This document shows positions 10,123-50,958 of a stretch of DNA of 64,000 nt, one piece after another. The notes under the pieces were generated by a model, which saw only the letters and a list, made by a program, of their open reading frames with translations, made no database searches and had not been told where the DNA came from. The position numbers and the translations under genes are program-made. This stretch comes from a virus (lineage: Duplodnaviria; Caudoviricetes). Each line of letters starts with the position of its first letter. Within the stretch, counting starts at the first letter, position 1. The stretch covers positions 292 to 64,291 of IMG/VR virus record IMGVR_UViG_3300009149_000032. One strand, written 5' to 3'.

Positions 10123-10151
10123 ATTATACCATAATCTTAGTTACGTGTCAA
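10123..10151 (-). promoter_or_regulatory. Sigma70-type promoter for the SSB-uvsX-gp55-gp47 unit
   Basis: Minus strand TTGACA-N17-TATAAT with TG extended -10. Confidence 0.85.
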
Positions 10152-25643: not shown

Positions 25644-26210
25644 ATGTCAGCAACAGCATTTTATGCCGAGGTAGGTAATCATATGAATCGTAACTTAGAC
25701 CTTGACATTTTAGCAAAGGAACAAAGAATGACGAAAGATAAAGAAGATACTGAGAAGAAAGTAAAACTTCTCGTTGCGCTTGCTGAGAGAATGGAAAAGG
25801 TAAAGATAAAGGTACAGAATCTTTCTCAGTCTGATCTCTCCAAGGTTGACAAGAACAATCTCCATACTGAAATGGAAACCGCCATGCTAACACATTCGAA
25901 AATTATAGACGATGTGTACCAGATGAAAGTTGCCATTGGAGATATGAAAGCAATAAGAAACAGTCTGACTCAGATGCTTCATCATAAACTTAAGTTCAGG
26001 AATCAATTGAATCTGAAGTCTGCGAAAGAGATTCAGACCTATATGGATGCAGACGCTACATTCAATCAAGTAAATATACAAATTAAAAAGTTGGAGGCAC
26101 TCATTGAAAAAAGTCAGGAATTCTCATCGCTACTCAGATCAAAGATCGGGTTCATTAGGGATCTCACCAAACTTAAGACTCAGGAACTCTTCGGAGAGCA
26201 GAGTGGGTAA
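25644..26210 (+). CDS. UvsY-like recombination mediator
   Basis: Helical protein ending EIQTYMDAD...L-S---FIRD-------LFG, similar to the UvsY C-terminus. Confidence 0.55.
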   Translation: MSATAFYAEVGNHMNRNLDLDILAKEQRMTKDKEDTEKKVKLLVALAERMEKVKIKVQNLSQSDLSKVDKNNLHTEMETAMLTHSKIIDDVYQMKVAIGDMKAIRNSLTQMLHHKLKFRNQLNLKSAKEIQTYMDADATFNQVNIQIKKLEALIEKSQEFSSLLRSKIGFIRDLTKLKTQELFGEQSG

Positions 26211-27129
26211 TGACATTCCAATCCTTGAGTTTTCCAAAACCCCTTCTGAAGATCCTCTCTGGACGACTTTCATGGGTCATCTGGTGCATCCTGATTATTC
26301 TCATCCCGTTTTCTTTAGGCATAATCTTTCTAACGTTAATCTTTTTAACATTTATGCCGGGGAGACTGTGTATCTTATTGGTCGGGGACCGTCTCTTGGT
26401 AGGTTCGTAGAGAATGCAAAGATCAATAAGATGTTGCAGCACCCAGTTATTACAACCTATGGTATGAATTCCTCGCCAGAAGTTCTCAATAACAATGTGA
26501 ATCTCTGGTCAGCGGTTGATAACGTAACGAAATTCCCCAGACAGATTGCTAAGAACCCTAACATAACAAAATTCATTCCGATGAATCGCTTCACAACTTT
26601 CGATTTCAATTCCCGAACCCAAGACAATAAGAAAATCCTAGCATACAAAGATGGTGAAGAGATGAAGTACAATTGTCTCTGTCCTAATATGTTTGGTGTA
26701 CAGACGTACCTCCTATCAAAAGATAGTGTTAGGAGTGTAACGTTTGGAAATGCATTCCTGAATTGCCCCGCAGTTCTATACGGAATGTTCAAAGGGCATA
26801 AGTGTGTGTTGCTTTATGCTATTAAGATTTGTCTACTCCTTGGATTCAAAAAGATTGTACTGATTGGAGTGGACTTTAGTATGGACCCCAAAGAACCATA
26901 CTACAAACAGACAGCAGCAGACCACAACTCTTTTCACGTTCAACATAACAATAGACTCTACGATGCTCTTGCTCCTATGATGCAGGAGATTGTAAGCACA
27001 CTTCATAAAAATAAGTCACAGTACAGATGTAAGATTTCAACAGCAGAGAAGATACCTCTGCTACCATTTATACCAAAGGTAGATTTGGCAGCACAACTTG
27101 CTGCTGATATTGCAAGGAAGACTAAGTAG
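26203..27129 (+). CDS. Maf/DUF115 (MptE-like, sialyltransferase-like fold) protein
   Basis: YLIGRGPSL, GMN, WSAVDN, AI-I--LLGFKKIVLIGVDF; GTG start at 26203 after GGAG. Confidence 0.65.
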   Translation: MGNDIPILEFSKTPSEDPLWTTFMGHLVHPDYSHPVFFRHNLSNVNLFNIYAGETVYLIGRGPSLGRFVENAKINKMLQHPVITTYGMNSSPEVLNNNVNLWSAVDNVTKFPRQIAKNPNITKFIPMNRFTTFDFNSRTQDNKKILAYKDGEEMKYNCLCPNMFGVQTYLLSKDSVRSVTFGNAFLNCPAVLYGMFKGHKCVLLYAIKICLLLGFKKIVLIGVDFSMDPKEPYYKQTAADHNSFHVQHNNRLYDALAPMMQEIVSTLHKNKSQYRCKISTAEKIPLLPFIPKVDLAAQLAADIARKTK

Positions 27130-29488: not shown

Positions 29489-29562
29489 TCTAATTTTATT
29501 ACCTTAGTAGAGAGTGGATTTTTTATAGTCTGCTCTTTTCTATTATATCCCAGATTTTTATC

Positions 29563-29591
29563 TTGACACATAGAGAAAGATGTGTTAAAAT
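29563..29591 (+). promoter_or_regulatory. Sigma70-type promoter upstream of the unit leading into the glycosyltransferase cluster
   Basis: TTGACA-N17-TAAAAT with TG, then AAAGGAG RBS and ATG at 29606. Confidence 0.75.
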
Positions 29592-29860: not shown

Positions 29861-30191
29861 TCACTTTGTAACTCAAGTTGATGACTCTATCATTGATTGG
29901 CACCAAGCGGTAGTCTCTGTTGAAACTCTTTTGCAAAGGATAGAAAATGAAAGTGACGCAGATAATTCTGATTGTAGTGGTTCTTGTTCTTGCTCTGGTG
30001 CATCTGAATCTCCAGATACGGTATGCAAATGTAGCAGCGACGAATCAAAACTTGGTCGTGAAGAATTTGAAGATGGAATTGAGTATCCTAAAGACCCAAC
30101 AAACAAGCCAGTTACCTACGGTCCAATTGAAAAACCAACAGTCTTCACCAACTGCCGAAAAATCGAAAACACAAATAGAGATGAAGGTTGA
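29754..30191 (+). CDS. Hypothetical protein overlapping both neighbours
   Basis: GGAGG RBS; 3' half overlaps the 3D-domain gene in another frame. Confidence 0.4.
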   Translation: MDSKELIKTIKYLLATGNRLTSVTGTLLHGNLRSLNHFVTQVDDSIIDWHQAVVSVETLLQRIENESDADNSDCSGSCSCSGASESPDTVCKCSSDESKLGREEFEDGIEYPKDPTNKPVTYGPIEKPTVFTNCRKIENTNRDEG

Positions 30192-30465
30192 AGCAACAGC
30201 ATATTGTCCTGCTTCTTGCTGCTGTGGCAAGTACGCTGATGGGATAACAGCAACGGGAGCAGATGCTTATACAATGGGAGTTGCAGTAGATCCGAAAGTT
30301 ATTCCTCTGGGAAGCACAGTTTGTATTCCCGGTTATGGTACAGTTATTGCCGACGATGTAGGTGGAGCAATTAAGGGAGACAAGATCGATGTCAGATTCA
30401 GAACACACCAAGAAGCAAGGGAATGGGGTAGACAACTCAGGACTATCACAATACTTCGAAAGTAA
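29947..30465 (+). CDS. Membrane-anchored 3D-domain (MltA-like) peptidoglycan lytic transglycosylase
   Basis: N-terminal hydrophobic helix; ATAY...TATG...VAVDPKVIPLGS...GYG...ADDVGGAIKG-KIDV. Confidence 0.88.
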   Translation: MKVTQIILIVVVLVLALVHLNLQIRYANVAATNQNLVVKNLKMELSILKTQQTSQLPTVQLKNQQSSPTAEKSKTQIEMKVEATAYCPASCCCGKYADGITATGADAYTMGVAVDPKVIPLGSTVCIPGYGTVIADDVGGAIKGDKIDVRFRTHQEAREWGRQLRTITILRK

Positions 30466-30481
30466 CCCAAGACAAACAGTA

Positions 30482-30670
30482 GTGTATCAATATCTTTGCT
30501 CCTCTTGTAATCGAATTACAGAGGAGCGTTTCCCATTTGGAGAACCAGATCCTTCTACTCAATGTCAGAACCCTGAGTGTAAGGGAATGGCAATGAAGAT
30601 ACTTTCTACTCCAAATGTCCTCATAGGTATACCAATAAATGAAGCACGTAAAGGAAGGGGTAAAGGATGA
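30482..30670 (+). CDS. FmdB-like zinc-ribbon protein
   Basis: YQYLCSSC...CQNPEC...KILS-P; start uncertain. Confidence 0.6.
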   Translation: MYQYLCSSCNRITEERFPFGEPDPSTQCQNPECKGMAMKILSTPNVLIGIPINEARKGRGKG

Positions 30671-31425
30671 AACTATCGATAGGTGATATTGGAGTAGCAA
30701 TTCTTAGTACCAATAGACCAGAGTGTACTAAGCGTCTTATCAATTCAATAGAGAAGAGAACGCCGGTTTCAGGATGGAAACTATTTGTAATGGATGATTC
30801 AGAACCTCGATACAAACCACAGGTTCTCTCTGCTTGTCAAAAGGATTGGGTTCAGTATTGTGATACAGGCGAAAGAATTGGAGTAGCAAAAAATACTAAT
30901 CAAGCAATGAGAGCGTTGCAACCATACAAGTATAAGATTATACTTAACAATGACGTTGAAATGATAAAGAGAAATTGGATGTTCCTTTATCCTATCGCAA
31001 TGATGAGGACAGGATTCCACCACTTCTGTTTCCAACAAGAGGGTTTGTGGGGAGCAGCAACCAAGAAACGACCTGAAGAGATCTGGAATCACAAAGGTTG
31101 TACCATAAAAACGATTCAGAATTATCCTCAGGGTGCTGTACTCGCCTATGACCAGACAGCATTTGAGACTGTAGGATACTTCGACGCTAAACTCTTCGAG
31201 TCGTATGGAAAGTCTCACTGGGATTGGTCATTCCGAGTTTCGGATTCAGGAATACAGCCAGAAGGTATCCACGATATAGTTGGTTCAAATGATTATATGA
31301 AAGTTCACGATGAGTTATGTTGTACCCCCACTGCTCAGAGGTTGGAATCATATACTAGAAATACTGCTATCTTAAATAACCTCCGCACCCGAGCAGGTGA
31401 AAGGATCTACATTCCATATGGCTAA
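30667..31425 (+). CDS. GT-A (GT2-like) glycosyltransferase
   Basis: ILSTNRP, VMDDS, GVAKN-N, LNND, VGYFD. Confidence 0.85.
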   Translation: MKLSIGDIGVAILSTNRPECTKRLINSIEKRTPVSGWKLFVMDDSEPRYKPQVLSACQKDWVQYCDTGERIGVAKNTNQAMRALQPYKYKIILNNDVEMIKRNWMFLYPIAMMRTGFHHFCFQQEGLWGAATKKRPEEIWNHKGCTIKTIQNYPQGAVLAYDQTAFETVGYFDAKLFESYGKSHWDWSFRVSDSGIQPEGIHDIVGSNDYMKVHDELCCTPTAQRLESYTRNTAILNNLRTRAGERIYIPYG

Positions 31426-32101
31426 GTTTCTAGTATGGGTAAACAGTTACAATCGAAAGGAGATGCTTCTATTCCTTATTGACAGTATCCTTTATCAGCA
31501 GAGAAGAGATACTGTAGACATTATGGTTATAAATGATAGCAGCGACCAAGATTACTCAGAGGTTAAGTCTCAAGTCGATTACTATTGGAAGACGAATAAG
31601 AATTACGGTAAGGAAGAATACTGGAAACTGATTGCGTTTGGTATCAATAAGATTAAATCCATGCCAAAGTACGACTATTATATCAAAACAGACGACGATA
31701 TGAGATTATCTGTAGGATTTTTTCCTACGATTGAGAGATTAGTTTCTGAAATAAATGACCCAAACTGGGCAACTATTGATATTTTATCCGCTCCGAGACA
31801 GAGAGGTAGGACACTTCGGGGTCATTCTGTCGAAATTCAAGGTGAGCGTGATAAATACTTTAGGACACAATGGGTTGATATGAATTTCGTATTCAATCTG
31901 AACACGTTTCCGTATACTATTGAACGATGCAAGGCAGGTAAAGCGTCTAGTGGTGTAGGGTTATGGTTAACTAGATACCTCACCAAGCACGGATATAACC
32001 TATATCAATCTGCCAACTCTCTGGTACTTCATGGAGATCACGAATCGATGATGAACGTAGAAGAAAGAAAGAAACATCCAATAATAACCAAGGAGAGGTA
32101 G
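31397..32101 (+). CDS. GT-A (GT2-like) glycosyltransferase
   Basis: VWVNSYNR, VINDSS, KTDDD, QWVDM; likely start 31418. Confidence 0.8.
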   Translation: MKGSTFHMAKFLVWVNSYNRKEMLLFLIDSILYQQRRDTVDIMVINDSSDQDYSEVKSQVDYYWKTNKNYGKEEYWKLIAFGINKIKSMPKYDYYIKTDDDMRLSVGFFPTIERLVSEINDPNWATIDILSAPRQRGRTLRGHSVEIQGERDKYFRTQWVDMNFVFNLNTFPYTIERCKAGKASSGVGLWLTRYLTKHGYNLYQSANSLVLHGDHESMMNVEERKKHPIITKER

Positions 32102-32709
32102 TGAGTTTCAGAATCTTTACATACTATACCGAGAACACTCCTTACGAACAAGAAGCAGATAATCTTCAACGAGATTGCGAGAGACTCAAGATAGCATTCG
32201 AAAAATTCGCAGTCCCCTCTACAGGTGAGTGGGTAGAGAACACGATGATTAAACCTACTCAAATCTCCGTAGCGTTGGATTGTTTCAGTTCTAGCAATAT
32301 CGTATGGATAGATGCAGACGCAAGAATAAAATCTTATCCACATATCTTTGACGAGTATGAAAATGATGGTATAGACTTCTCTGTATTCCAAATGGGAAGT
32401 CAGAAGCGGGTAACTTCTGGTACTATCTTTATGAGAAACGTTCCTAAGGTTCGAGAGTTCATACATGATTGGAGATTAGAATGTCGGCAATGCATGGATC
32501 GAATCGGAGATCAGCATTGTCTTAGGAAGTTAATCAAGCGAGAAGGTTACAAGAAGTACGATATAAAATATAGATCCCTTCCGTATTCTTACTGTTACAT
32601 CTTCGATGATTCGTTAAGGAGACTCGCACCGAACATCCCTCCTCTCGAAGGAGAACCTGTTGTAGTACATACTCAAGCGTCGAGGAAGTATAGGAATAAG
32701 AAACTATGA
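32101..32709 (+). CDS. Nucleotide-diphospho-sugar transferase-like GT-A
   Basis: W--N---KP, VWIDADA, SGTIF, DQ--L, LP-SYC-IFD, H-QASR. Confidence 0.8.
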   Translation: MSFRIFTYYTENTPYEQEADNLQRDCERLKIAFEKFAVPSTGEWVENTMIKPTQISVALDCFSSSNIVWIDADARIKSYPHIFDEYENDGIDFSVFQMGSQKRVTSGTIFMRNVPKVREFIHDWRLECRQCMDRIGDQHCLRKLIKREGYKKYDIKYRSLPYSYCYIFDDSLRRLAPNIPPLEGEPVVVHTQASRKYRNKKL

Positions 32710-33623
32710 AGCGCACTAGACCAAAGCGAATGAGAAAAAAAGATAAGTCTGCTTATCTCGTTGATGGTGCAGGAAACCTTGTTAGAGGAAGCGGTCCACT
32801 TCCGACTCGAACAAATTATAGAGTACCTAAAGTAAACATGAAGCAGTTCTCTAAGAAAGATCCAAACCGTTCTATCTTTGTTTGGGTTAATACTTTTAAC
32901 CGTCCAGAGGATCTCAAATGTTTACTGGGTGATATTTATAAGAACAAACGAGATCACAAGATAAAAGTTCTGGTTGTTGATGATGCTAGTACAGAAGATT
33001 ACGATACAACTCTGGATTCCTTCGCCGGGAAGTTGAATATCGAATATCATAAAATGGATCAAAACCACGGCAAGAAAAAGTATTGGAAACTCTGCACCTA
33101 CGCTATGAATGAAATCAAAGAGAATTCTGGATACGATTACTACGTTAAGATAGATGACGACGGTAGATTGGTTAATGGATTCTTTGATCGCTGCTGCAAT
33201 ATCTGGGAAAGTATAACTGATGTACGAAAGGTTTGTTTGAACTTCCGTCTGGATAGTAGAGAGGGTAAAGAGGTTTGGACTAATACCAGACCTGTCCTTG
33301 AGCAGCACGGAGGTATCAGCGTATATAAATCTCAGTGGGTTGATATGGATTTCTTCACAACTATCAATTTCTTCTCAGCACTCAGGTACAGACTCAATAA
33401 ACCACCAGATTCGAGATGGAGAAATCCTTGCGTATCTAGTGGAACCGGAAGTGATATAAGTAGGAGACTCACATCACTTGGCTATCATTTGTTTCTCACA
33501 ACTCAATCTCTAGTCAAGCATGACGAGCATAATTCAAAAATGAATCCTAAAGAACGTGCAAAGAATCCTCTCATAACAAAACCTTTCACTGACAAAAATT
33601 ATGGAGTTCGTAAAAATGGCTAA
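32706..33623 (+). CDS. GT-A (GT2-like) glycosyltransferase, paralogue of 31397-32101
   Basis: VWVNTFNR, VVDDAS, KIDDD, QWVDM, SSG-G, S-MN--ER. Confidence 0.8.
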   Translation: MKRTRPKRMRKKDKSAYLVDGAGNLVRGSGPLPTRTNYRVPKVNMKQFSKKDPNRSIFVWVNTFNRPEDLKCLLGDIYKNKRDHKIKVLVVDDASTEDYDTTLDSFAGKLNIEYHKMDQNHGKKKYWKLCTYAMNEIKENSGYDYYVKIDDDGRLVNGFFDRCCNIWESITDVRKVCLNFRLDSREGKEVWTNTRPVLEQHGGISVYKSQWVDMDFFTTINFFSALRYRLNKPPDSRWRNPCVSSGTGSDISRRLTSLGYHLFLTTQSLVKHDEHNSKMNPKERAKNPLITKPFTDKNYGVRKNG

Positions 33624-34320
33624 AGTTTATTTCGGAATGGCAACGTATCCTCCTCGAAAGAAATGTCTTAAGGAAGTCATTCCTAATATTCTACCGCAGT
33701 GTACTAAACTTTTTGTATACCTGAATAAGTATACAGACGTTCCTAAGATTCTCATTCATCCAAAGATAAAAGTTATTATGGCAGAGAAGGAAGGTGAGTG
33801 TGGAGACATTGGTAAGTTTCATTTCGTAGACAAGGTAGACGGATACTACTTTACTGTCGATGACGATCTAGTCTATCCTCCAAATTATGCACAGAGAATG
33901 ATGAGAGCGGTTGATCATTACAGGCAACGTGCAGTCATAGGGGTTCATGGTTGTGTTCTCAATACGAGAAACATGTGGAACTACTATCGTTCCCGCAGTC
34001 TGACCAATTATAGAGCAGCACTTGCTAAGGAAAAGAATGTTCATATCATCGGTACAGGCACAGCAGCATTCCACACTAGCACTCTAAAGATATCTAGAAA
34101 GTCTTTCCCTGTGGAAAACATGGCAGACATTTGGTTTGCAATTGAAGGTCAGAAGCAAAGAGTTCCTTTCATTTTAATATCACGACCTATGCGTTGGGTA
34201 AATGATTGTGCTACTGCCCCGCAGACTACTTCTATCTATCGTAAGAGTAAGAATAAAAGTCACGGTAAATACCAAACGAAAGTCATAAAAGAATATGGAA
34301 ACTGGAAGATCATCTCCTAA
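33601..34320 (+). CDS. GT-A glycosyltransferase
   Basis: ATYPPR, GDIGKF, YFTVDDDLVYPP-Y, GTGT, MADIW. Confidence 0.8.
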   Translation: MEFVKMAKVYFGMATYPPRKKCLKEVIPNILPQCTKLFVYLNKYTDVPKILIHPKIKVIMAEKEGECGDIGKFHFVDKVDGYYFTVDDDLVYPPNYAQRMMRAVDHYRQRAVIGVHGCVLNTRNMWNYYRSRSLTNYRAALAKEKNVHIIGTGTAAFHTSTLKISRKSFPVENMADIWFAIEGQKQRVPFILISRPMRWVNDCATAPQTTSIYRKSKNKSHGKYQTKVIKEYGNWKIIS

Positions 34321-35011
34321 GATAGCCATTATGGTTGTCGCTAACAATGTCTCGAAGGATGTCCTTAAACGATTCCTCTGGGCATGTGAGAAGTCTGAAA
34401 AGGTTTTACCTTTCGATGTTATAGTTGGGAACCATAGAGAACCTGAACAGAAGTTTCACAAGACTGTTATCTTGAATGATATGCTCCGCTCGTATAAAGG
34501 TAAGTACGAAGTATTGGTACAGACTGATATTGATATGCTAGTTCCACCTCGATTGATTACTGATACGTATAGATACTGTCTACGATCCAACGATTGCTAC
34601 CACTGCAATTATTATTTGATTGAACCTAAGGAACTTAAAGATAAACTCTACAAAGATATACCTTGGAATAAAATTCAACAGAGGCAAGTCAGGGCAGCAT
34701 CGGGATCTTGGAACGGTCTATGTTCTAGAATGTGGAGCGAGTCTGGTGGATTCTGTGAAGCGATTTCTCTCTTAGGTGGTCCTGACTCAGAGTTCTATAT
34801 GAGAACAAGGAAGAAAAATATCAGGTGGTATATCACAAGTAAGTTTGTATTAGATCACGTAAATCATCCGAGAAGAAAGGTTAAGAAGCAAGGTAAGAAG
34901 AATTTAAGTATTGCTAGAAAGTATCCTCGTGATTACAATTGGCTAAAGAATCGTAACAACAATGTTGGTTCAACTAAGATTAAGATTTATTCTTTTAGGG
35001 GTAACAAGTGA
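34295..35011 (+). CDS. GT7-C/GT2-like galactosyltransferase-type protein
   Basis: QTDIDMLVPP; GGFCE---LGG-D-EF; H--H. Confidence 0.75.
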   Translation: METGRSSPKIAIMVVANNVSKDVLKRFLWACEKSEKVLPFDVIVGNHREPEQKFHKTVILNDMLRSYKGKYEVLVQTDIDMLVPPRLITDTYRYCLRSNDCYHCNYYLIEPKELKDKLYKDIPWNKIQQRQVRAASGSWNGLCSRMWSESGGFCEAISLLGGPDSEFYMRTRKKNIRWYITSKFVLDHVNHPRRKVKKQGKKNLSIARKYPRDYNWLKNRNNNVGSTKIKIYSFRGNK

Positions 35012-35682
35012 AGAAGAAGAAGAAGAAGAAGAAGAAAGATATAGCCATAATCGTAGCAGCAAAAGGAATCGATCCTGCGTGGGTTGATCGGTTCAAGGAT
35101 AGCATTGTAAAGTCTAATCCTAAACACTCAGTCGATATCATGATCGGGCAAGGTAAGGATAAGAAGTTTTACAAGACGAGAATTATAAATCACCTTATCA
35201 GAAAATGTATGCCGCTATACAAAGTTATTATCCAGACTGATATCGATTTACTAATTCCTCCCCTTCTAATTGACAGAACTTACAGAGCGTTAATGAATCA
35301 ACCTAACAATGGATTCCATCATCACTTGAGATACATTGAACCAGAGGAAGTCAAAGGAAAGGCATATAAAGATTATCCTTGGTACAGGTGGGTTAATCTT
35401 AAATCATCCTTCTGTTCTGGTTGTTGGAATGGTATGTTAAGTAATACTTGGGCAAAGAGTAGAGGGTACAACGAAGATATGTTTGCTTGGGGTAGTGAAG
35501 ACACGGAGTTCTACAACCGATCCAGAAGACTTGGTATTCGGTGGATCAACTGCAAAGATCTTGGTCTAGTTCATATCAGTCACCCACGAAGAACAAAGCG
35601 CAGAGCGCAAGAGAATTTTAAACTTGGCAATATGTACTCCGATAAAACAAATTGGTTAACCGGCGATCTTCATAAAAAATAG
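35008..35682 (+). CDS. GT7-C/GT2-like galactosyltransferase-type protein
   Basis: QTDIDLLIPP; GYNEDMFAWGSED; N-terminal poly-Lys from an AAG repeat. Confidence 0.8.
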   Translation: MKKKKKKKKKDIAIIVAAKGIDPAWVDRFKDSIVKSNPKHSVDIMIGQGKDKKFYKTRIINHLIRKCMPLYKVIIQTDIDLLIPPLLIDRTYRALMNQPNNGFHHHLRYIEPEEVKGKAYKDYPWYRWVNLKSSFCSGCWNGMLSNTWAKSRGYNEDMFAWGSEDTEFYNRSRRLGIRWINCKDLGLVHISHPRRTKRRAQENFKLGNMYSDKTNWLTGDLHKK

Positions 35683-35691
35683 GAGTGTAGT

Positions 35692-36354
35692 ATGAAGAAG
35701 GTAGCAATAATGGCAGTGGCACAAAACATCCCACTGGAAACTAGGAATAGATTCTCAGAAAGTATTCGCTTGTCGAACCCTTCAGTATCATGTGATGTGT
35801 ATCTTCTTGGAGCAAAGAAACCTCGGAAGAAGAAACAACCATTTAACAAGTCGAAACTTCTTAACAAGGGAATAAAAAAGTTAGTCCCTTTGGGATACGA
35901 TGTAATCATTCAAGCAGATATTGATCTGATAGTTCCTCCGGGACTTATAGACAAGACATACGAGATTGCAATGAGTAAGCGTATCTGTTTCTATAATTGC
36001 CACAGACGTATCGACCCTGTAGATCTTCCTAATCTTCCTTCCGATTACAGTTCAATGGATTGGAAGAAGTATATGTCGTTTAAGTGGGAAGCAGCAAACG
36101 GTTGTTGGAATGGGTTGCAGGGAAAGTATTGGATGGATACTGGTGGATACAACGAAGATATGATTGAATGGGGTAAAGAGGATGACGATTGGAGAAGACG
36201 AGCAGCAAAGTTTGGGAAGATTCCTTTTAAGAACTGGAATAAATTCTGTCTCATACATTACAATCACGAAATAAGAACTAAGGATTTCAGAAAGCGAAAC
36301 AGACAATGTGAAATCCGTAGCCTTAATAAGGGGAAGTGGAATTGGCTAACGTAG
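35692..36354 (+). CDS. GT7-C/GT2-like galactosyltransferase-type protein
   Basis: PFNKSKLLN-G, QADIDLIVPP, GGYNEDMIEWGKEDDD. Confidence 0.82.
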   Translation: MKKVAIMAVAQNIPLETRNRFSESIRLSNPSVSCDVYLLGAKKPRKKKQPFNKSKLLNKGIKKLVPLGYDVIIQADIDLIVPPGLIDKTYEIAMSKRICFYNCHRRIDPVDLPNLPSDYSSMDWKKYMSFKWEAANGCWNGLQGKYWMDTGGYNEDMIEWGKEDDDWRRRAAKFGKIPFKNWNKFCLIHYNHEIRTKDFRKRNRQCEIRSLNKGKWNWLT

Positions 36355-37067
36355 TTTTCGGACCATACCTCACGAAGAGACTTAAGTTTCATCAACACGA
36401 TTCCTCCAATGGTGGTAAGGGTGGAGCGAAACCCAATGACTATAACCAAATGAAGAATTGGTATGAGAGTGTTAAGAAATGCAATCTCAACGGAGTTATC
36501 TTACACAATGAATGCTCCCCGGAATTCATCAAGAAGTTTTCAACAGAGAAGATATCATTCTTTAACTGGGAAAAGAAACACAGACCTTCTTATAATGATG
36601 AAAGATTCTATGCGTACCACGAGTATCTAGTATGTCATCCTAAGGTTGAGAGAGTATTCTTCACAGACCTTTTCGATGTTAGGTTCTGTGCTAATCCATT
36701 TAAACTTATGGAGAAGAATCCTGAACATGATTTATTCTTTGGTGAAGAGTTGATGAGTAAGTCAAGTTCGAGATGGATGGTTAGGAAGTGTAGAGAGATG
36801 AAGTTGCAATTGATTACTGGTGGGTATCATCCCGGTCAAGTAATATACAATGCAGGAATCATCGGAGGTAAGCGAAAGCATATTCTCAATCTCTTGATAG
36901 ATATGAAATCTATTTTCGATAAGATACATCCAAGATATAATGCGAATATGCCTGTCTTCAATTTCGCTGCATCTAGAACTCCGAGTAAAATCTTTAGTGG
37001 TCCTCCGCTGCATAATAAATTCAGGTCCAACAAAGTTCCAGAGGGAACTTATATCAAACATAAGTAG
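36336..37067 (+). CDS. Putative GT-A glycosyltransferase
   Basis: VFFTDLFDV...NPF...YNAGIIGG...NM-VFN. Confidence 0.6.
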   Translation: MELANVVFGPYLTKRLKFHQHDSSNGGKGGAKPNDYNQMKNWYESVKKCNLNGVILHNECSPEFIKKFSTEKISFFNWEKKHRPSYNDERFYAYHEYLVCHPKVERVFFTDLFDVRFCANPFKLMEKNPEHDLFFGEELMSKSSSRWMVRKCREMKLQLITGGYHPGQVIYNAGIIGGKRKHILNLLIDMKSIFDKIHPRYNANMPVFNFAASRTPSKIFSGPPLHNKFRSNKVPEGTYIKHK

Positions 37068-37075
37068 GAGAGCAT

Positions 37076-37876
37076 ATGAATATTGTAAATCTATTACCCA
37101 AGCATTTCATTGAGCATGAATACTTTAACATTATGTACAAGCACTTCGATCCAAAAGTATTTGAAGGTAAGACTATCTATGCATCTCATAATTATAACGA
37201 ACTTCCTAGCTACGGAAGAAACGTTATCGCCATACTGACTGCAGGTAATGAGAGAGCAATCCCTCCGAAGTATAAGGACAAGGTTGGTCTTGTATTCAAA
37301 CATCATCTGAACGCTAACAATGTAGGGAATGTCTATCATATTCCTCTCACATACGTACAGGGATTCAATGCAACAGATGCTATACCGATACTCAAGAGAA
37401 AATATGATGTAGTATTCATTGGTAGAACCTGCAAGAGAAAAGATATGTGGACAAACGCTTTGCAGTGGAGAGATAGAAACCCCTCCAAGAATTGTCTCCT
37501 GATTGATTCTGGTCAGAGATTCATGGGAGTTAAGGGTGGTATGGGAATCAAAAAGTATTCAGAGTATATGAAAGACGCTAAGATTGTTTTGAGTCCTAAG
37601 GGAATGGTTCGTGCTGAGTGTCTCCGATTCTCTGAGGCAGTTAAGGTTGCTAGTGCTATTGTCGCTTGCCCTCACCCTATGAAGGTAAGATCATTTAAGA
37701 ACTGCCCTGCATCCTACGTAACTAACTGGAATGAACTGGGAGGTATTCTGGATTCTTATACAGATGAGAAGTTACAAAGGGTACACAATAAAATGAAACT
37801 CTGTTGGAGAGACTACTTCTCTCCTGAGTCTATCGGAAAGTATATCTCAAAGGTAACTAAATCGATCCTATGCTAA
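37076..37876 (+). CDS. GT-B (exostosin/GT47-like) glycosyltransferase
   Basis: RKYDVVFIG...YSEYM--AKIVLSP-G...E--RF-EA. Confidence 0.65.
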   Translation: MNIVNLLPKHFIEHEYFNIMYKHFDPKVFEGKTIYASHNYNELPSYGRNVIAILTAGNERAIPPKYKDKVGLVFKHHLNANNVGNVYHIPLTYVQGFNATDAIPILKRKYDVVFIGRTCKRKDMWTNALQWRDRNPSKNCLLIDSGQRFMGVKGGMGIKKYSEYMKDAKIVLSPKGMVRAECLRFSEAVKVASAIVACPHPMKVRSFKNCPASYVTNWNELGGILDSYTDEKLQRVHNKMKLCWRDYFSPESIGKYISKVTKSILC

Positions 37877-38454
37877 GAATAATACAAGTACGAATACCAA
37901 AGACTGCTACGACTTCTATTGAAGCGGCACTTAAGTTTATGAGGAATAAGAATCTCTTAACCCTTAAACCACATGGTCACGACCAAACTCCTGCAATACT
38001 TAGACAGTACACAGCAGAAGTGAAAAAGAAAGCAATAGTGCTTGCCTCTGTCCGTAATCCTTTTGATAGATTGGTCAGTGCATATCAATACATTGTCCAG
38101 TTCAAAAAGGATAAGAGGAATAAAGAGTTGAAGTATGTTTTCGATTATCCATCCTTCAGGGACTTCGCAATTGATCTCCCCAAGATATTCGAGAAGAATC
38201 AATTCTTTCATCCTCATACGAGATGGTTGTATAATGGAGAGAAGAAACTCTACAATTTTCTCATTCGATATGAATCACTTGAGGGAGATTGGAATAGATT
38301 CCTTAAGGAATATAAGTTATCACCTATGCCTCTACCAGTACAGCGGAAGACAAAGAGGAAGAGTTGGAGAAATTATTATGACGATGAGAGTATGAAGGTA
38401 GTTCACAAAGTTTACGAGGAAGACTTTAGGAGGTTAAAATACGATGGCAATTAG
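37870..38454 (+). CDS. Sulfotransferase (Sulfotransfer_2 family)
   Basis: PAPS motifs IPKTATTS and VRNPFDRLVSAY; RYE-L--D; W--YY; Y--DF. Confidence 0.85.
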   Translation: MLRIIQVRIPKTATTSIEAALKFMRNKNLLTLKPHGHDQTPAILRQYTAEVKKKAIVLASVRNPFDRLVSAYQYIVQFKKDKRNKELKYVFDYPSFRDFAIDLPKIFEKNQFFHPHTRWLYNGEKKLYNFLIRYESLEGDWNRFLKEYKLSPMPLPVQRKTKRKSWRNYYDDESMKVVHKVYEEDFRRLKYDGN

Positions 38455-39028
38455 TCCTGCTAATATAGATCTTATACCACAAGGAGTAAAATTTCTTGGA
38501 GTAACGTTCAAGGATGTTTGGGTTGGTGAACTTGGTAATATAAATATTCGCCAATTAAAATGTACAGCAAAGTCGTGGTTCAAGAAGAAAGGTTCTAAGC
38601 ATACAAGTTTTGATATCAATGGTAAGGATGGAGCGATTGCTGTAGATCTATGCAAACCAATCCCTGACAAGTATAAGAACAAGTTCAATATGGTTACGAA
38701 CTTTGGTACAACTGAACACGTTGAAGATCAGACACAGGTATTCAGAAACATACACGATATGACCACAGTGGGTGGAGTTATGATTCATTCTGTTCCCCTT
38801 CATGGTTACTGGAAAGGTCATTGTCCATTTCGATACACAGCAAAGTTTCCTCCAATGCTTTCAGGATTGAATGGATACTCACTTAAGTTTCAAGAGATAA
38901 GGGATAGGTGGAAAGAAAAGCTATTGAATTTTATCGTACAGAAAACCAGTAATGAATTCGTGGCGATAGATCTTTCTGCTATCACCGTATCAAAAAAATA
39001 CAAGAAGAATACAGACAATTTGTTTTAG
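38444..39028 (+). CDS. SAM-dependent methyltransferase
   Basis: ELGN...SFDING...DL--P...FNMVTNFGTTEHV...GG-MIH--P. Confidence 0.75.
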   Translation: MAISPANIDLIPQGVKFLGVTFKDVWVGELGNINIRQLKCTAKSWFKKKGSKHTSFDINGKDGAIAVDLCKPIPDKYKNKFNMVTNFGTTEHVEDQTQVFRNIHDMTTVGGVMIHSVPLHGYWKGHCPFRYTAKFPPMLSGLNGYSLKFQEIRDRWKEKLLNFIVQKTSNEFVAIDLSAITVSKKYKKNTDNLF

Positions 39029-39036
39029 GATACACC

Positions 39037-39801
39037 ATGATTAATCTTTATGCTGCTAAGTGGATCAAGACTGTCAGAAACTTTGGCGATACTGTAAATC
39101 CATTTCTTGTAACCTCGCTCACTGGGAAACCTTCTCAATTCACATTGAATAGGAAAGTGAAAAGGTATATGGTTTCTGGGAGCGTTCTCCACCACGCAGA
39201 TAAGAATTGCGAAGTCTGGGGTTCAGGGTTGATATCATACAACGCCATACCAATCCGCAAGCCAAAAGTATTCTATGCTGTGAGGGGTCCGAGGACTCAT
39301 CTCATGCTGAAGGAACATAGGATAGTTACTCCAGAAGTTTACGGAGATCCTGTCTTACTTTTCCCTCGCATATATAATCCTACTGTAGAAAAGAAATATG
39401 AGGTAGGAATTATCCCACACTATGCTGATAAAGATTCTTTGTGGGTTAAGAAAGTTTCTAAAAACAAAAATGTTAAGGTAATAGATATACAACATAAGAA
39501 CTTTAAAGAAATGATTAACGATGTATTGAGTTGTAACATAATCCTATCCAGTTCGCTTCACGGAGTTGTAATTGGAGACGCTTACAATGTTCCTTCACAC
39601 TGGATAAGTTTATCAGAGAAGGTTAAGGGTAAGGGTTTTAAGTTCGCTGACTACTATGCTTCTGTAAATAGATTCTGTTTTCTAAGAACTGTATCAGAAG
39701 AAACTCGTCTGAGTAGTATCCTTAACGGTTTTGATAATTACGAAGTCGATATAGATTTAGAACCTCTCATAAAGTCTTGTCCGTTTGGAGAAATCAAATG
39801 A
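39037..39801 (+). CDS. Polysaccharide pyruvyltransferase (ExoV-like)
   Basis: NFGD, GS-L, VWGSG, AVRGP-T, GDP-LL, IIPHY, SSSLHG---DAY-VP, FKF-DYY. Confidence 0.88.
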   Translation: MINLYAAKWIKTVRNFGDTVNPFLVTSLTGKPSQFTLNRKVKRYMVSGSVLHHADKNCEVWGSGLISYNAIPIRKPKVFYAVRGPRTHLMLKEHRIVTPEVYGDPVLLFPRIYNPTVEKKYEVGIIPHYADKDSLWVKKVSKNKNVKVIDIQHKNFKEMINDVLSCNIILSSSLHGVVIGDAYNVPSHWISLSEKVKGKGFKFADYYASVNRFCFLRTVSEETRLSSILNGFDNYEVDIDLEPLIKSCPFGEIK

Positions 39802-39966
39802 AGATAGTAAGTTTCTATCATGACGTAGCGAGTAAGAAGTATTTTTTATGACCACTCAATAAGATTAACAAAGCAGTGTAAGTCTCTCGGATTAGACTAC
39901 CACATTGTTCACAGAGACTTTGGTAAGTCGTGGATAGATAATGTCCGACCAATAGGAAATAGAGTT
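39798..39966 (+). pseudogene. Frameshifted remnant of a nucleotide-diphospho-sugar transferase N-terminus
   Basis: ATG at 39798 stops at a T6 tract; removing one T gives MKIVSFYH...RL--QC--LGL...WIDN, similar to the 32101 protein and in frame with 39967. Confidence 0.55.
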
Positions 39967-40971
39967 GTGTCTATACTATACTACGCAAAACCTAAAGGAG
40001 TAACTTCGAGAGCGATCTATGATGAAGTGGTTGGTAGATTTTATAATCCAATCTTCTTGAATGTAACGGGGATAAGAAACATACTCAATGATATCAAACA
40101 GTACAGTCCTGAACAGATATGGGTATCCTCCGACTGTCTAGAAAGTATGTCTCACAAAGCAAGAGTGATTCGAAATATGAAAATCCCCGTTGTCAATCTA
40201 AATATAAAGGAACGGTCACAAAAGAACCACGCTATTTATAAGAGAGTCAATCAGATACTCATTGAAGCAAACCTCCCCTTAACAAAGTACAAGGGTGAGG
40301 TAAAGCCATTATTCTTTTTAATGATTGACAAATGTATCTCTGAGTATCTAGAAGCGAATGACTCTATAAAAGATATCAACCGCAAGTATCCTCTAGTTGT
40401 TATATCGTCTGGGTTGAACCAAGCAGCAATTGAAAAGCATCTTCCTGAATGTATATTTATTGATTCGAAGAAGAACTCATTTCCACATAAGCTGAAATTA
40501 TTCCTAGAGTATATCAACCATAGGAATATAAACTATAACATTGCGTTCAGATTAGATATGGATTGTATTATATTTGATGTTGAGAGATTAATTGAAATGG
40601 GTAAGTATATTGTGGGGAGAAAAGTTCTGGTTGGTAATCTGAAAAAAGCAACAGGTTCATACGTTATAAAGTGGTTTGGTCGTCACGGAGGATATATTCG
40701 TGGTGGATGCAATATGACAACAAAGGAATCGCTAGATTCTATCAAACAGTTTAACGATGAAGATTTTAAACCGCAAGACTTTGACGCTTGCTATAATATA
40801 ATTCTAGCTAGATTTGGTGTGCAACAATTAGGTCTTCCTATATTCGAATTCAATGAGAGATATCAAGGTCAGCATCCGGCATGGCACCCGATCAAGTTGA
40901 AAACTGTAGGAAGGATGGAACTCTTTAAACAGCACAACGATTTGTATAACTCACAGGAGAAAGCATCGTGA
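39967..40971 (+). CDS. Putative glycosyltransferase
   Basis: FRLDMDC DxD motif and YIRGGC, inside the GT cluster. Confidence 0.55.
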   Translation: MSILYYAKPKGVTSRAIYDEVVGRFYNPIFLNVTGIRNILNDIKQYSPEQIWVSSDCLESMSHKARVIRNMKIPVVNLNIKERSQKNHAIYKRVNQILIEANLPLTKYKGEVKPLFFLMIDKCISEYLEANDSIKDINRKYPLVVISSGLNQAAIEKHLPECIFIDSKKNSFPHKLKLFLEYINHRNINYNIAFRLDMDCIIFDVERLIEMGKYIVGRKVLVGNLKKATGSYVIKWFGRHGGYIRGGCNMTTKESLDSIKQFNDEDFKPQDFDACYNIILARFGVQQLGLPIFEFNERYQGQHPAWHPIKLKTVGRMELFKQHNDLYNSQEKAS

Positions 40972-41600
40972 AGCAACTAAAGGTGGATTCATATAAAGAG
41001 TATGTTAAACTTCAGACCAAAGGTAATAAAGCGAAGTTGAAGAAGAATAAAAATCTTCACGGTATTAAGAATGAAGAGATTGATTTCGTTACGAAGTATG
41101 TTAAAAAGAATATCCCAGAGGCAACGTTTGGGATCTGCCACGGTGTACGAAATGGTTGGGAAGTTTGTGAACTTCGAAAATCTCTTGACATAGATATTAT
41201 CGGGACAGACATATCATCGACAGCAGTAGAGTTTGAACATGTTATCCAACACGACTTCCATAAGATTAAACCTGAGTGGTTGGGTAGCGTTGATTTTATT
41301 ATGACAAACTCACTAGATCATTCTTATGACCCTGCAATGGCTATTGACCAGTGGATGAGTTGTGTTAAAGATACAGGAAGGTTATTTCTTATCTGGATGA
41401 AAACACACAACGAAAGTTTCCTCCGAGAAGGAAGCGATGATCTCTTCGGTGCGAATAGACCTGAGTATAAAGATTTGATTGAGAAGAAGTATTGTCTTGA
41501 AGAGATGAAACCTATTCGAGTTCTCAACCACGGAGTCCGTTATATATTTATAGTTAAACATAGGAGAGAATCTAATGGCAATGGTATCGAAGTCTCATAA
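40968..41600 (+). CDS. SAM-dependent methyltransferase
   Basis: ICHGVRNG-E, IGTDIS, HDFH, DF---NS-DHS-DP. Confidence 0.75.
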   Translation: MKQLKVDSYKEYVKLQTKGNKAKLKKNKNLHGIKNEEIDFVTKYVKKNIPEATFGICHGVRNGWEVCELRKSLDIDIIGTDISSTAVEFEHVIQHDFHKIKPEWLGSVDFIMTNSLDHSYDPAMAIDQWMSCVKDTGRLFLIWMKTHNESFLREGSDDLFGANRPEYKDLIEKKYCLEEMKPIRVLNHGVRYIFIVKHRRESNGNGIEVS

Positions 41601-42249
41601 ATTTATCTACGTATCCGGTGGTAGGAACGCCACTGGTGCTGTCAAGGGTGCGCTTGTAAAGATCCCCGGTCTTGATTACTTTGAACCTGCCAAGAAGAAC
41701 AAAGGTGATTGGAGAAAGTTTAACAAGCATATGCCTGCAAGACATATCAAACGAGCAATCTCTGCAGATGTTTGGAACAAGTCATTCAAGTTTACCTTTG
41801 TGCGTAACACATACAGTTGGGTTGTATCCTCATTCTTCTTCTGGGTAAAGATCGGTATGCGACCTATGCCTAAGAATAAAATTATGACAATGGATGATTT
41901 CAAGTTCGCTGTGAAGTATTACAGATCTCCTCAGGGTAGAAGACATGATGAGTGTTCAGACATACGCTCACAGCATTCATTCATCTGTAGTAAGGATGGA
42001 TATATTCTTTTGGACTTCGTAGGTCACTTCGAGAACCTCCAGAAAGATTTCGATGAGATATGTACCCACATTGAAATCAAACCGATCCCTCTGACTGTAC
42101 AGAACTCTTCTGCTGCGTCTCAACATAAGAAACACTCGACGGGTATTCATTGGAGTGAACACTACAAGAGTAATGCAAATGCTCAAGACTATATCTATAA
42201 ACATTGGAAGAGAGATATAGACGCATTCAAATTTAAGTTGGAGAAGTAA
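41575..42249 (+). CDS. Sulfotransferase-like protein (Sulfotransfer_2)
   Basis: SHKFIYV, KHMPA, FKFTFVRN-Y-W-VS, DFVG-FENLQ-DF; 5'-PSB motif is divergent (GRNATG). Confidence 0.75.
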   Translation: MAMVSKSHKFIYVSGGRNATGAVKGALVKIPGLDYFEPAKKNKGDWRKFNKHMPARHIKRAISADVWNKSFKFTFVRNTYSWVVSSFFFWVKIGMRPMPKNKIMTMDDFKFAVKYYRSPQGRRHDECSDIRSQHSFICSKDGYILLDFVGHFENLQKDFDEICTHIEIKPIPLTVQNSSAASQHKKHSTGIHWSEHYKSNANAQDYIYKHWKRDIDAFKFKLEK

Positions 42250-42836
42250 TGGCAAAGATATTTTTAGATCTCGGTGTCCATAATGGGCAGACATTAGAGA
42301 TGGGTATCAAAACTTATCCTCACTTCGATAGGTTCATTGGAATCGAACCTGTAACATCATTATGTGAAAAAGCTATTGGTAGATGTAGTGCATATAAAGA
42401 TAAGAACATAAAGGTTTATAATATAGCTTTGGATAGTCTGAGTGTTCTGAAAAAGACGATAACATTTTATGAGGATACAAGCAAAGGTAATCATCAACTA
42501 GGTTCCTCACTCTTCTCGGACAAGACTATGAGAACTAATAAGAAAGTGGAAGTAATGTGTTGGGATGTGAATCATTTCTTTAGAACCAACTTCAAGGATA
42601 ATGATCAGGTCGTAATGAAGATTGACGTTGAAGGTGCTGAATACAGGATCTTTGATGCACTGATTACCTCAGGACTCCTCAAGAAGCACGTTATAAAAAT
42701 CTTTGCTGAGTGGCACTGGAACAAAGTACCCTCAATAAGCAAGGATGAACACAACAGAATTCTTATTGCCCTCAACAAATTAGGCTATAACCTCAAAGGT
42801 AAGAGCAAGTTAGATGAATTTTATAATGGATTTTAA
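42249..42836 (+). CDS. FkbM-family methyltransferase
   Basis: FLDLGVHNG, GIEP, GSS, MKIDVEGAEY, EWH. Confidence 0.85.
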   Translation: MAKIFLDLGVHNGQTLEMGIKTYPHFDRFIGIEPVTSLCEKAIGRCSAYKDKNIKVYNIALDSLSVLKKTITFYEDTSKGNHQLGSSLFSDKTMRTNKKVEVMCWDVNHFFRTNFKDNDQVVMKIDVEGAEYRIFDALITSGLLKKHVIKIFAEWHWNKVPSISKDEHNRILIALNKLGYNLKGKSKLDEFYNGF

Positions 42837-42858: not shown

Positions 42859-42887
42859 TTGACAATCCCGCCAGATTCAGATATAAT
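42859..42887 (+). promoter_or_regulatory. Sigma70-type promoter for the Rnl2-PARP unit
   Basis: TTGACA-N17-TATAAT. Confidence 0.85.
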
Positions 42888-50328: not shown

Positions 50329-50957
50329 GAAGAAAAACTCCAAGAGGAGACGGACTTAGACCTAAGATTGAATCTCTTATCAACGAAGATACTTACTTTG
50401 TGATGATTGGTGCCAACGATGGATACATTGGCGATCCTCTTTACAATATGATATACGAATTCAATATGCGTGGGATATTCTTTGAACCTATCGAGGAATG
50501 TTTTCTGAAGTTGAAAGAGAACTATAAGAAGCATCCCCGATATGACGAGATGATATTTCATCAAGAGTGCGTCACTGAAACTGATGGCATGATAGATTTC
50601 TATATAAACAAAAAGGATTCTTCCTGCTCCACCGCTGATAATACAATTGGTGCGTATAAGAAAGAGTTCAGGCAGAAGCGTCTGGTTAAAACTCAATGTC
50701 CTTCACAGACGTTGGCAACCCTCAATAAGAACCTCACACACCACATAGATCTATTGCAGATTGATACTGAAGGTCTTGATTGGTTAATCATAAAACAGAT
50801 CCTAGATCTAAGTAAACTCCCACACATTATTCATTTCGAAAAGAAGAACTTCTCTGATGAGCATCATAAATTCTGCCTCAGGTTCCTAGATGACTACAAC
50901 TACAAAGTTGAGAGAGGTGACTCCCGACACGATTATCTGGCGATACGAAAGGGTTAG
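50325..50957 (+). CDS. FkbM-family methyltransferase
   Basis: IGANDG--GDP, FEP, IDLLQIDTEG-D. Confidence 0.85.
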   Translation: MRRKTPRGDGLRPKIESLINEDTYFVMIGANDGYIGDPLYNMIYEFNMRGIFFEPIEECFLKLKENYKKHPRYDEMIFHQECVTETDGMIDFYINKKDSSCSTADNTIGAYKKEFRQKRLVKTQCPSQTLATLNKNLTHHIDLLQIDTEGLDWLIIKQILDLSKLPHIIHFEKKNFSDEHHKFCLRFLDDYNYKVERGDSRHDYLAIRKG

Positions 50958-50958
50958 T

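Follow-up and report, generated by a model that had tools for sequence, protein, structure and literature searches.

Clusters of glycosyltransferase (GT) genes have been published for marine T4-like phages, and in the excerpts of the corresponding papers remodelling of the host O-antigen or capsule is the default reading (PMC7029224, PMC7824862). An excerpt of a further study calls the 13 GTs of phage S-SCSM2R possibly the highest number in a marine phage (PMC12801897). Here we describe a block of 17 glycan-building genes in a 64,000-nucleotide stretch of viral DNA (the window), which comprises bases 292-64291 of the 64,291-base IMG/VR record IMGVR_UViG_3300009149_000032 (completeness rated 34%). 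As far as the excerpts of PMC12801897, PMC7029224 and PMC7824862 describe them, the 'LPS (lipopolysaccharide)/cell-wall' clusters of P-SSM2 and S-SCSM2R and the host-recognition cluster of pelagimyophages resemble this block in their T4-like core, in their many clustered soluble GTs and in a gene content that varies between relatives. In contrast to the present block, these clusters carry epimerases, KdsA/B, rfaE and RmlC and often lie by tail fibres, whereas the block lacks these genes and is located between the genes for ribonucleotide reductase (RNR) and RNA ligase. Moreover, the block encodes two sulfotransferases and one pyruvyltransferase, neither of which is mentioned for the marine myophage clusters in the same excerpts, and the window holds 14 GT-like genes compared to the 13 of S-SCSM2R. 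While GT clusters in marine T4-like phages are thus already known, new here are the sulfotransferases and the pyruvyltransferase, the lack of sugar-nucleotide genes, the organization of 17 genes as one unit in the replication region, and the phage lineage itself.

Several other systems share features with the block. Bacterial Wzx/Wzy- or ABC-dependent O-antigen and capsule loci comprise an initiator, a flippase, polymerase or exporter, and nucleotide-sugar genes, all of which are missing from the window and from its complete relative G004 (see below). The glycosylation gene sets of mycobacteriophages are much smaller than the present block. Freeman and colleagues are said to have described glycosylation of mycobacteriophage virions in 2023. 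Like virus-encoded virion glycosylation in mycobacteriophages, chloroviruses (A075L; PDB 8asa/8avq) and Mimivirus, the block combines soluble viral GTs with methyltransferases that would act in the cytoplasm without export machinery. An excerpt of PMC8456856 describes fibril glycans of Mimivirus that bear pyruvate ketals as well as O-methyl groups and are considered products of the virus itself. Giant viruses, however, encode their own sugar-nucleotide pathways, which the present lineage lacks, and its glycan is predicted from the genes. Cytoplasmic soluble GTs acting on long Ser-rich adhesin stalks are also found in the Ser-rich and Ser-Asp-repeat systems, i.e. GtfA/B with Ser-rich repeat proteins and SdgA/SdgB with Clf/Sdr proteins, and SdgA and SdgB glycosylate Ser-Asp repeats (PMC3794999, excerpt). 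SdgB and GtfA/B are among the fold matches of one block enzyme, g10. In contrast, these systems use 2-6 GTs and attach neither sulfate nor pyruvate nor methyl groups, the block has no sequence-level membership in them, and its link between enzymes and stalks is their co-occurrence in the lineage.

The uncultured huge phage LR756500.1 (462 kb) encodes a smaller related set of a sulfotransferase, a pyruvyltransferase, methyltransferases and GTs in one gene run, which contains homologues of g3, g11, g13 and the methyltransferase protein encoded at window positions 51810-53051. This phage also encodes KdsA, KdsB and a SIS isomerase (CMP-Kdo synthesis), a DegT aminotransferase, and KpsC/S-like and GT29-like enzymes. 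Because the CMP-Kdo synthesis genes are present, LR756500.1 makes at least one donor of its own, whereas the lineage of the block has no sugar-nucleotide genes. A search of open-access papers and preprints retrieved no report of a sulfated phage-made glycan or of glycosylated Ser-rich phage fibres.

The block (positions 30667-42836) consists of 17 co-oriented open reading frames (ORFs) on the + strand, termed g1-g17 (Table 1). A first-pass annotation made from the sequence alone had reported 17 contiguous, mostly overlapping genes, and its coordinates were confirmed: neighbouring genes overlap at 12 of the 16 junctions (by 1-29 nt), while the remaining four are gaps, three of 8-9 nt and one of 165 nt (g13/g14). 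Using Pfam gathering scores, PHROGs, ESM Atlas, paralogy and DxD motifs invariant among orthologues, we also reproduced its tally of about 11 GT-like proteins, two sulfotransferases (Sulfotransfer_2), one pyruvyltransferase (PS_pyruv_trans) and three methyltransferases. Matches exceeded the Pfam gathering score for g3, g7, g10, g11, g12, g13, g16 and g17, and stayed below it for g1, g2, g4, g5 (all GT2), g8 (Glyco_transf_7C) and g15 (Methyltransf_11). A DxD motif was invariant in g2-g8 (alignments of 3-8 orthologues each), and no invariant DxD was found in the orthologue alignments of g1, g9 and g10; g14 had no orthologues to align. Together with structure modelling, these comparisons predict that the GTs of the block are mostly DxD-type GT-A enzymes plus one GT47-like GT-B enzyme (g10). 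The assignment as GT is firm for about half of the 11 proteins and indirect for the remainder.

For g10, an AlphaFold2 model was compared with PDB structures. The best matches were EXT1, EXT2 and EXTL3 (E 1e-8 to 1e-6, TMq 0.53-0.60); further matches included the chlorovirus capsid-glycan xylosyltransferase A075L, the lipid-directed PimA and a methylmannose-polysaccharide mannosyltransferase. We found 26 metagenomic homologues of g10, some with PF03016 and including proteins on contigs of 184 kb, 177 kb and 57-67 kb. Its best viral match was a GT47 protein of Synechococcus phage S-SKS1, and no protein match was obtained in INPHARED or in GTDB genome contigs. No Pfam, PHROG, NCBIfam or PDB sequence match was found for g14, which reached 0.95 to viral GT31/Galactosyl_T clusters in ESM Atlas, with structural TM scores of 0.5-0.57 to Fringe, GT8 and GT2 models. 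Single-sequence PDB searches returned nothing for g1, g10, g14 and two MptE-like proteins encoded outside the block. Sulfotransferase genes are common among viral contigs, where 73 further loci were found, often with paired genes, and tblastn searches of these loci with the window proteins matched almost solely the sulfotransferases themselves. Single sulfotransferase and pyruvyltransferase genes also occur amid unrelated neighbours in Stenotrophomonas phage DLP_6 and Cobetia phage Carin-5, respectively.

Two general properties of the block proteins noted in the first-pass annotation, the lack of transmembrane segments and the strongly basic charge, were borne out. The best Kyte-Doolittle 19-residue window was <=1.37 in all 17 proteins, none of which has a transmembrane-like segment, and the pI was >8 in 17/17, with a median of 9.6 compared to 5.95 in the remaining 48 proteins of the window (Mann-Whitney p = 1.3e-6). 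The nucleic-acid enzymes of the window are likewise basic.

Judged from its T4-like core genes, the element carrying the block is a phage. The window encodes SbcCD-like gp46/47, gp55, UvsX, a gp32-like protein, RegA, a family B DNA polymerase, a gp41-type helicase and a primase, besides a class II-like RNR, RNA ligase 2, DNA ligase and endonuclease VII. The whole window is syntenic with G004, a complete relative of 191,782 b with terminal repeats (CheckV 100%), and the two together hold genes for gp43, gp41, gp46/47, UvsX, gp55, RegA, gp23, gp20 and others. The window DNA polymerase shows about 29% identity to polymerases of cyanomyoviruses and Vibrio phages, and a DNA-level search of INPHARED with the polymerase gene and the whole block gave no match. 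By these sequence comparisons, the phage represents a deep uncultured branch of T4-like phages.

The block occupied the same position in eight related contigs. G004 retains 15 of the 17 genes there (45-78% identity; g15 shifted), lacks g13 and g14, and carries a GT2_4/GT92-like gene in that slot. G001 retains g1-g7, and L161 and L164 carry parts of the block. In L163, L165, L166 and L171 its neighbours are the RNR/3D-peptidase genes on one side and the RNA ligase 2/PARP genes on the other. The g13 pyruvyltransferase was seen solely in the source genome, with no match in G004 or the other relatives. The variable slots in the relatives also hold GT-B pairs replacing g2-g4, a GT11-like gene, Sulfotransfer_1, further methyltransferases and a B12-radical SAM (S-adenosylmethionine) gene. 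As judged from these alignments, the block has long been fixed in the lineage and combines a core that is conserved with cassettes that can be exchanged. Because the block is kept lineage-wide while its cassettes are swapped, its product is probably under selection by some recogniser. Enzymes for building the glycan take up about 6% of a lytic phage genome of 190 kb.

ORFs similar to endonuclease VII/HNH and related to window positions 48367-49035 are found within the glycan block of relatives or at its border (G004 65065-65346, between g1 and g2; L008 3-413, after g7 of G001). They may be mobile endonucleases that aid cassette exchange.

The chance that the block is a bacterial polysaccharide locus misassembled onto phage DNA, the artefact against which the first-pass annotation had cautioned, is negligible, because the same block with the same phage flanks recurs in independent contigs, including the terminally repeated complete genome, and because GC content is even (0.37-0.41 inside the block vs 0.36-0.43 elsewhere in the window) and strand skew is unbroken.

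In Pfam scans of the window, export, initiating-transferase and sugar-nucleotide families were absent. For G004, we scanned 215 ORFs of >=70 aa with Pfam (E<=1e-4) and searched the six-frame translation for PF01370, PF00483, PF00005 and PF00303. The Pfam scan revealed neither an initiating transferase (Bac_transf, Glycos_transf_4), Wzx, Wzy or an ABC transporter, nor an epimerase/dehydratase, sugar nucleotidyltransferase, adenosine 5'-phosphosulfate (APS) kinase or ATP sulfurylase. In the six-frame searches, PF01370 was found in 0/2 records (the record of the window and G004), PF00483 gave nothing above cut-off, and PF00005 yielded only matches to the UvsX P-loop below cut-off. No ORF of G004 has >=4 transmembrane-like segments. 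The lone CTP_transf_like domain in G004 scores best as a nicotinamide mononucleotide (NMN) adenylyltransferase. The claim of the first-pass annotation that export, initiator, sugar-synthesis and 3'-phosphoadenosine 5'-phosphosulfate (PAPS) genes are lacking therefore holds for the window and extends to a complete genome. With sugar-nucleotide, PAPS, flippase, polymerase and ABC genes all missing from the complete relative, the soluble block enzymes would have to draw on host donors, as the first-pass annotation had proposed.

To locate promoters, we searched for TTGACA-N16-18-TATAAT with >=11/12 matching positions. The window contains 11 such sigma-70-type sites, nearly all intergenic and co-oriented with the replication genes, and G004 contains 34 compared to 8.25 in shuffled sequences. 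None of them lies inside the block, in the window or in G004. Because promoters flank the block and none lies within it in both genomes, it is predicted to form one early-type unit of about 13 kb; the block and the 3D-peptidase gene are thus probably transcribed as a single operon. The exact octamer of the T4 late promoter was not enriched (7 matches vs 3.3 expected; 4 of 100 shuffles reach 7). Shorter ATAAATA-like motifs occur upstream of some structural genes, and not clearly upstream of g1. Strong ribosome-binding sites of the AGGAG type are common in the window and G004. Together with the near-perfect sigma-70 promoters, they point to a host that relies on canonical sigma-70 and Shine-Dalgarno signals.

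As to the acceptor of the glycan, we tentatively favour a protein of the phage virion, in particular of its fibres, an assignment that stops short of being probable. Because the lineage lacks a lipid-carrier initiator, flippase, polymerase and exporter, a cytoplasmic phage protein that is later bound in the virion appears as the most likely target. According to this model, an operon of soluble basic enzymes would be expressed from an early-type promoter and act in the cytoplasm of the infected cell, where the 11 GTs would extend a heteroglycan from host-made nucleotide sugars. The two sulfotransferases (donor PAPS), the pyruvyltransferase (phosphoenolpyruvate) and the three methyltransferases (SAM) would decorate this heteroglycan, resulting in an anionic, partly capped glycan. 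The acceptor would be a cytoplasmic phage protein that later becomes part of the virion, with the Ser-rich stalks of fibre- or baseplate-like proteins as best candidates, and the fibres would end up with a coat resembling mucin or proteoglycan. We infer that all block enzymes act on one glycan, i.e. on a single chain bearing sulfate, pyruvate and methyl groups. The first-pass annotation had likewise proposed a sulfated, pyruvylated and methylated glycan on the virion. Its phage origin, soluble enzymes and host donors stood up to the analysis, and the virion acceptor and the single chain are carried over from it as what we still infer.

The Ser-rich candidates come from two relatives. In G004, three adjacent proteins have Ser-rich acidic tracts; the tract of the 1228-aa protein spans about 320 residues at about 70% Ser, and another of the three has a Laminin_G_3 domain with matches in virion and baseplate proteins of cyanomyoviruses. 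GT8 and GT2 genes adjoin these proteins. A second relative, G005/L173, encodes two stalk proteins that are rich in Ser and Asp and share their N-terminal domain with the G004 proteins. Such stalks, which are rich in Ser, Asp and Glu, are therefore present in 2/2 relatives with that region visible, and one domain match suggests their location in the virion. A further lead towards a virion acceptor is the GT47-like fold of g10, which matches the capsid-glycan enzyme A075L as well as SdgB and GtfA/B, enzymes that O-glycosylate Ser-rich repeats. The stalk proteins (G004 120611-123723; L173 10669-12780) have a common N-terminal domain of about 70 residues with a conserved Cys pattern, and some carry repeated Cys-rich modules. 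In 48 other viral loci with a homologous N-terminal repeat domain, Ser-rich tracts are essentially missing, and when the N-terminal domain of the Ser-rich protein was used in a word-based search, it matched only its own source protein. The specific proposal that poly-Ser stalks of fibres or baseplates are O-glycosylated by about a dozen phage GTs and then sulfated, pyruvylated and methylated, which would yield anionic, strain-variable glycan brushes on the virion, is speculative and rather doubtful.

Several observations weigh against a virion acceptor. The Ser-rich proteins lie outside the 34% fragment represented by the window; they were seen in two relatives, of which G004 is the one shown to carry the block, and their proposed place in the virion derives from a single domain match. 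The block itself is located in the replication region behind an early-type promoter and away from the structural genes, an arrangement that suits host-surface or DNA targets at least equally; near the fibre-like genes of G004 there is only the separate GT8 and GT2 pair. Ser/Thr-rich ORFs were not enriched within 10 kb of other viral sulfotransferases (10/74 loci vs 4/48 controls, mostly short, doubtful ORFs of antisense type). A 237-aa ORF beside the G004 fibres with an N-terminal P-loop-like motif was considered as a sulfotransferase and rejected (0 Pfam matches; hhalign probability 2.4%). GT folds do not identify an acceptor, and the matches of g10 include the lipid-directed PimA. Finally, basic charge equally fits enzymes that are membrane-peripheral or bind nucleic acids.

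The strongest competitor is remodelling of the host envelope, which we consider possible, though unlikely. Here, the soluble enzymes would act at the inner membrane face on host undecaprenyl-phosphate-linked intermediates, and a host flippase, ligase or ABC system would export the resulting O-antigen- or capsule-like glycan. Its purpose, about which we are no more confident, might be, for example, to block superinfection or to prevent progeny from adsorbing to debris. This is the default reading for the GT clusters of T4-like marine myophages in the excerpts of PMC7029224, PMC7824862 and PMC12801897, which offer no experimental support for it in such phages. The early-type promoter and the position of the block amid early and replication genes are in line with a target on the host, as is the first gene of the unit, which encodes a cell-wall-active 3D-domain protein with a hydrophobic N-terminus. 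Moreover, polysaccharide loci typically contain PS_pyruv_trans and FkbM families, high pI is usual in membrane-peripheral GTs, and the swapping of cassettes resembles that of O-antigen loci. However, an initiating phosphoglycosyltransferase, polytopic membrane proteins and Gtr-type, Wzx, Wzy and ABC genes are all missing from the complete relative G004, so that 11 foreign GTs would depend wholly on host carriers and exporters that accept a foreign product. In addition, none of the 22 glycan proteins of the window reached a curated bacterial polysaccharide family in NCBIfam (the generic FkbM domain was the sole curated cut-off passed), and the epimerase and Kds genes seen in the excerpts on cyanophage clusters are absent here.

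Less likely, and in our view improbable, is another cytoplasmic product, such as a free or lipid-anchored intracellular oligosaccharide (cf. the methylated polysaccharides of mycobacteria), a glycosylated small molecule, or a glycosylated host protein or non-virion phage protein. A product of this kind would agree with enzymes that are all soluble, with the lack of export genes, with the match of the g10 model to the methylmannose-polysaccharide mannosyltransferase, and with the several methyltransferases and radical SAM enzymes that accompany the block in relatives. It would, however, give no obvious reason for the diversification of cassettes. Pfam scans of the window and G004 revealed no carrier, scaffold or tailoring genes that hint at a small-molecule aglycone, and we know of no phage precedent.

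Very unlikely is hypermodification of DNA, in which an oligosaccharide on a modified base would help to evade restriction or nucleases. The glucosyltransferase genes of T-even phages are early genes among replication and nucleotide-metabolism genes, and the block shares this neighbourhood and its early-type promoter; all 17 enzymes are also basic like the nucleic-acid enzymes of the window. A precedent for large substituents exists in phage YerA41, in which thymidine carries an apparently oligosaccharide substitution of about 1 kDa and several genes have GT motifs (PMC9023294, excerpt). In contrast to T-even-type glycosylation of 5-hydroxymethylpyrimidines, the ThyA-family hydroxymethylase (PF00303, six-frame) was found in 0/2 records (the record of the window and G004), with the control positive in 10/14 genomes. 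Instead, the lineage has ThyX and dCMP deaminase, through which dTMP is ordinarily made. The Pfam scans of the window revealed neither the alpha- nor the beta-glucosyltransferase family of T4, and sulfate or pyruvate would presumably add negative charge to DNA that needs to be packaged.

If a virion protein is the acceptor, sulfated and pyruvylated glycans would join the chemistry of phage particles, with effects on adsorption, on stickiness to marine gels and particles, on recognition by grazers and defence systems, and on the reading of viral-fraction proteomes and buoyant densities. A mucin-like coat, if real, would be the first sulfated glycoconjugate made wholly by bacteriophage enzymes and a prokaryotic-virus counterpart to the fibril glycans of giant viruses. 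If the host surface is the target, the lineage would provide a test case for the oft-repeated, untested view that host O-antigens are rewritten by marine T4-like phages. Under either reading, its divergent GTs, its sulfotransferases and its pyruvyltransferase form a compact set free of export genes that is amenable to expression and assay.

Table 1 Features of the 17-gene block, its transcription unit and further glycan-type genes of the window (window positions).
Feature	Coordinates	Strand	Evidence and remarks
MptE-like (DUF115) candidate ulosonic-acid-type transferase, outside block	26104..27129	+	weak Pfam MptE-like; paralogue of 49036-50328; 84% / 69% identity to G001 / G004
Terminator-like hairpin after RNR gene	29509..29538	+	12-pair stem, then T-rich tail
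Sigma-70-type promoter, probable start of the unit of the block	29563..29591	+	TTGACA-17-TAAAAT, 11/12, TG extension; equivalent perfect site 5' of block in G004
3D-domain cell-wall peptidase-like protein, hydrophobic N-terminus	29947..30465	+	Pfam 3D 65.8 bits; PHROG peptidase families; transmembrane-like segment at residue 1; first sizeable gene of transcription unit
Small zinc-ribbon-like ORF	30362..30670	+	immediately 5' of g1; kept in relatives
g1 GT-like	30667..31425	+	weak GT2 22.7 bits (cut-off 23.3); phrog_2456 glycosyltransferase E 6.6e-18; orthologues in 5 relatives
g2 GT-A-like	31397..32101	+	weak GT2; paralogue of g4 (34% identity); invariant D99-D-D
g3 Nucleotid_trans (GT77-type) glycosyltransferase	32101..32709	+	Pfam 27 bits, above cut-off; invariant D71-A-D; homologue in huge phage LR756500.1
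g4 GT2-like	32706..33623	+	Pfam 21.2 bits, under cut-off; G004 orthologue 26.7 bits; invariant D150-D-D
g5 GT2-like	33601..34320	+	weak GT2; 85% / 72% identity to G001 / G004; invariant D87-D-D
g6 GT-A-like	34295..35011	+	no Pfam match; paralogue of g7 (37% identity) and g8; phrog_15655; invariant D78-I-D
g7 GT7-type (beta-4-Gal/GalNAc-transferase-like) GT-A	35008..35682	+	Glyco_transf_7C 27.2 bits, above cut-off; weak PDB matches to chondroitin synthase 3 and B4GalT1; invariant D78-I-D
g8 GT7-type paralogue	35692..36354	+	Glyco_transf_7C 19.9 bits, under gathering score; 36% identity to g7; invariant D76-I-D
g9 GT-like	36336..37067	+	C-terminal half of PHROG glycosyltransferase family phrog_1579, E 3.5e-16; orthologues in 7 relatives
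g10 GT47/exostosin-like GT-B	37076..37876	+	RXYLT1_C 31 bits; best-conserved block member; AlphaFold2 model pLDDT 93.8
g11 sulfotransferase	37870..38454	+	Sulfotransfer_2 53.5 bits; phrog_3347
g12 SAM methyltransferase	38444..39028	+	Methyltransf_23 28.2 bits
g13 polysaccharide pyruvyltransferase	39037..39801	+	PS_pyruv_trans 42.4 bits; 34-42% identity to huge-phage, Lak-phage and Cobetia-phage genes
g14 GT31-like GT-A	39967..40971	+	ESM Atlas features and structure; variable cassette with g13
g15 probable SAM methyltransferase (weak)	40968..41600	+	Methyltransf_11 19.6 bits (cut-off 21.2); orthologues in 3 relatives
g16 sulfotransferase	41575..42249	+	Sulfotransfer_2 41.5 bits; phrog_3347 E 1.3e-12
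g17 FkbM-type methyltransferase	42249..42836	+	Methyltransf_21 42.7 bits; TIGR01444 above cut-off
Perfect sigma-70 promoter	42859..42887	+	12/12; starts next unit and marks 3' border of block; same in G004
Second glycan block	49036..53051	+	MptE-like/WaaZ-like 49036-50328, FkbM 50325-50957, weak GT8 50890-51825, Methyltransf_23 51810-53051

Beyond the 17-gene block, the window contains five further glycan-type genes that the first-pass annotation had not mentioned, so that its 14 GT-like genes comprise 11 in the block, two MptE-like and one GT8-like gene. The second glycan block is supported by phrog_4603, Pfam and the MptE-like and WaaZ_KDO_III clusters of ESM Atlas, and is partly kept in G004.

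Several other genes of the lineage were recorded. A VWA-like protein (phrog_7371) is encoded at window positions 10148-10813 on the - strand; its homologues (43-44% identity) lie near the glycan cluster of LR756500.1 (L013 29956-30423) and directly after a sulfotransferase in the viral locus L105. A 635-aa protein (window 4595-6502) with weak beta-helix/chondroitinase B-like matches and no G004 counterpart may represent a variable fibre of the depolymerase type. The DNA polymerase (1405 aa; L030, G004 79182-83399) and RNR (882 aa; L020:7329-9977) of G004 contain intein-like inserts, which the window genes lack. At L023, L024, L035 and L017, G004 also encodes the RNA repair proteins Ro60/TROVE, RlaP, a PNKP-like phosphatase and RNA ligase 2, as well as a caspase-like peptidase, a nuclease similar to the anti-Pycsar protein Apyc1, and two radical SAM enzymes, of which one depends on B12. 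Finally, window positions 45227-46534 encode a eukaryote-style PARP with WGR, PARP regulatory and PARP catalytic domains (Pfam 105 bits), which is kept in G004, L163, L165 and L166. G004 additionally has NADAR, Macro, NMN-adenylyltransferase-like and phosphoribosyltransferase genes, which together with the PARP suggest an ADP-ribose/NAD module.

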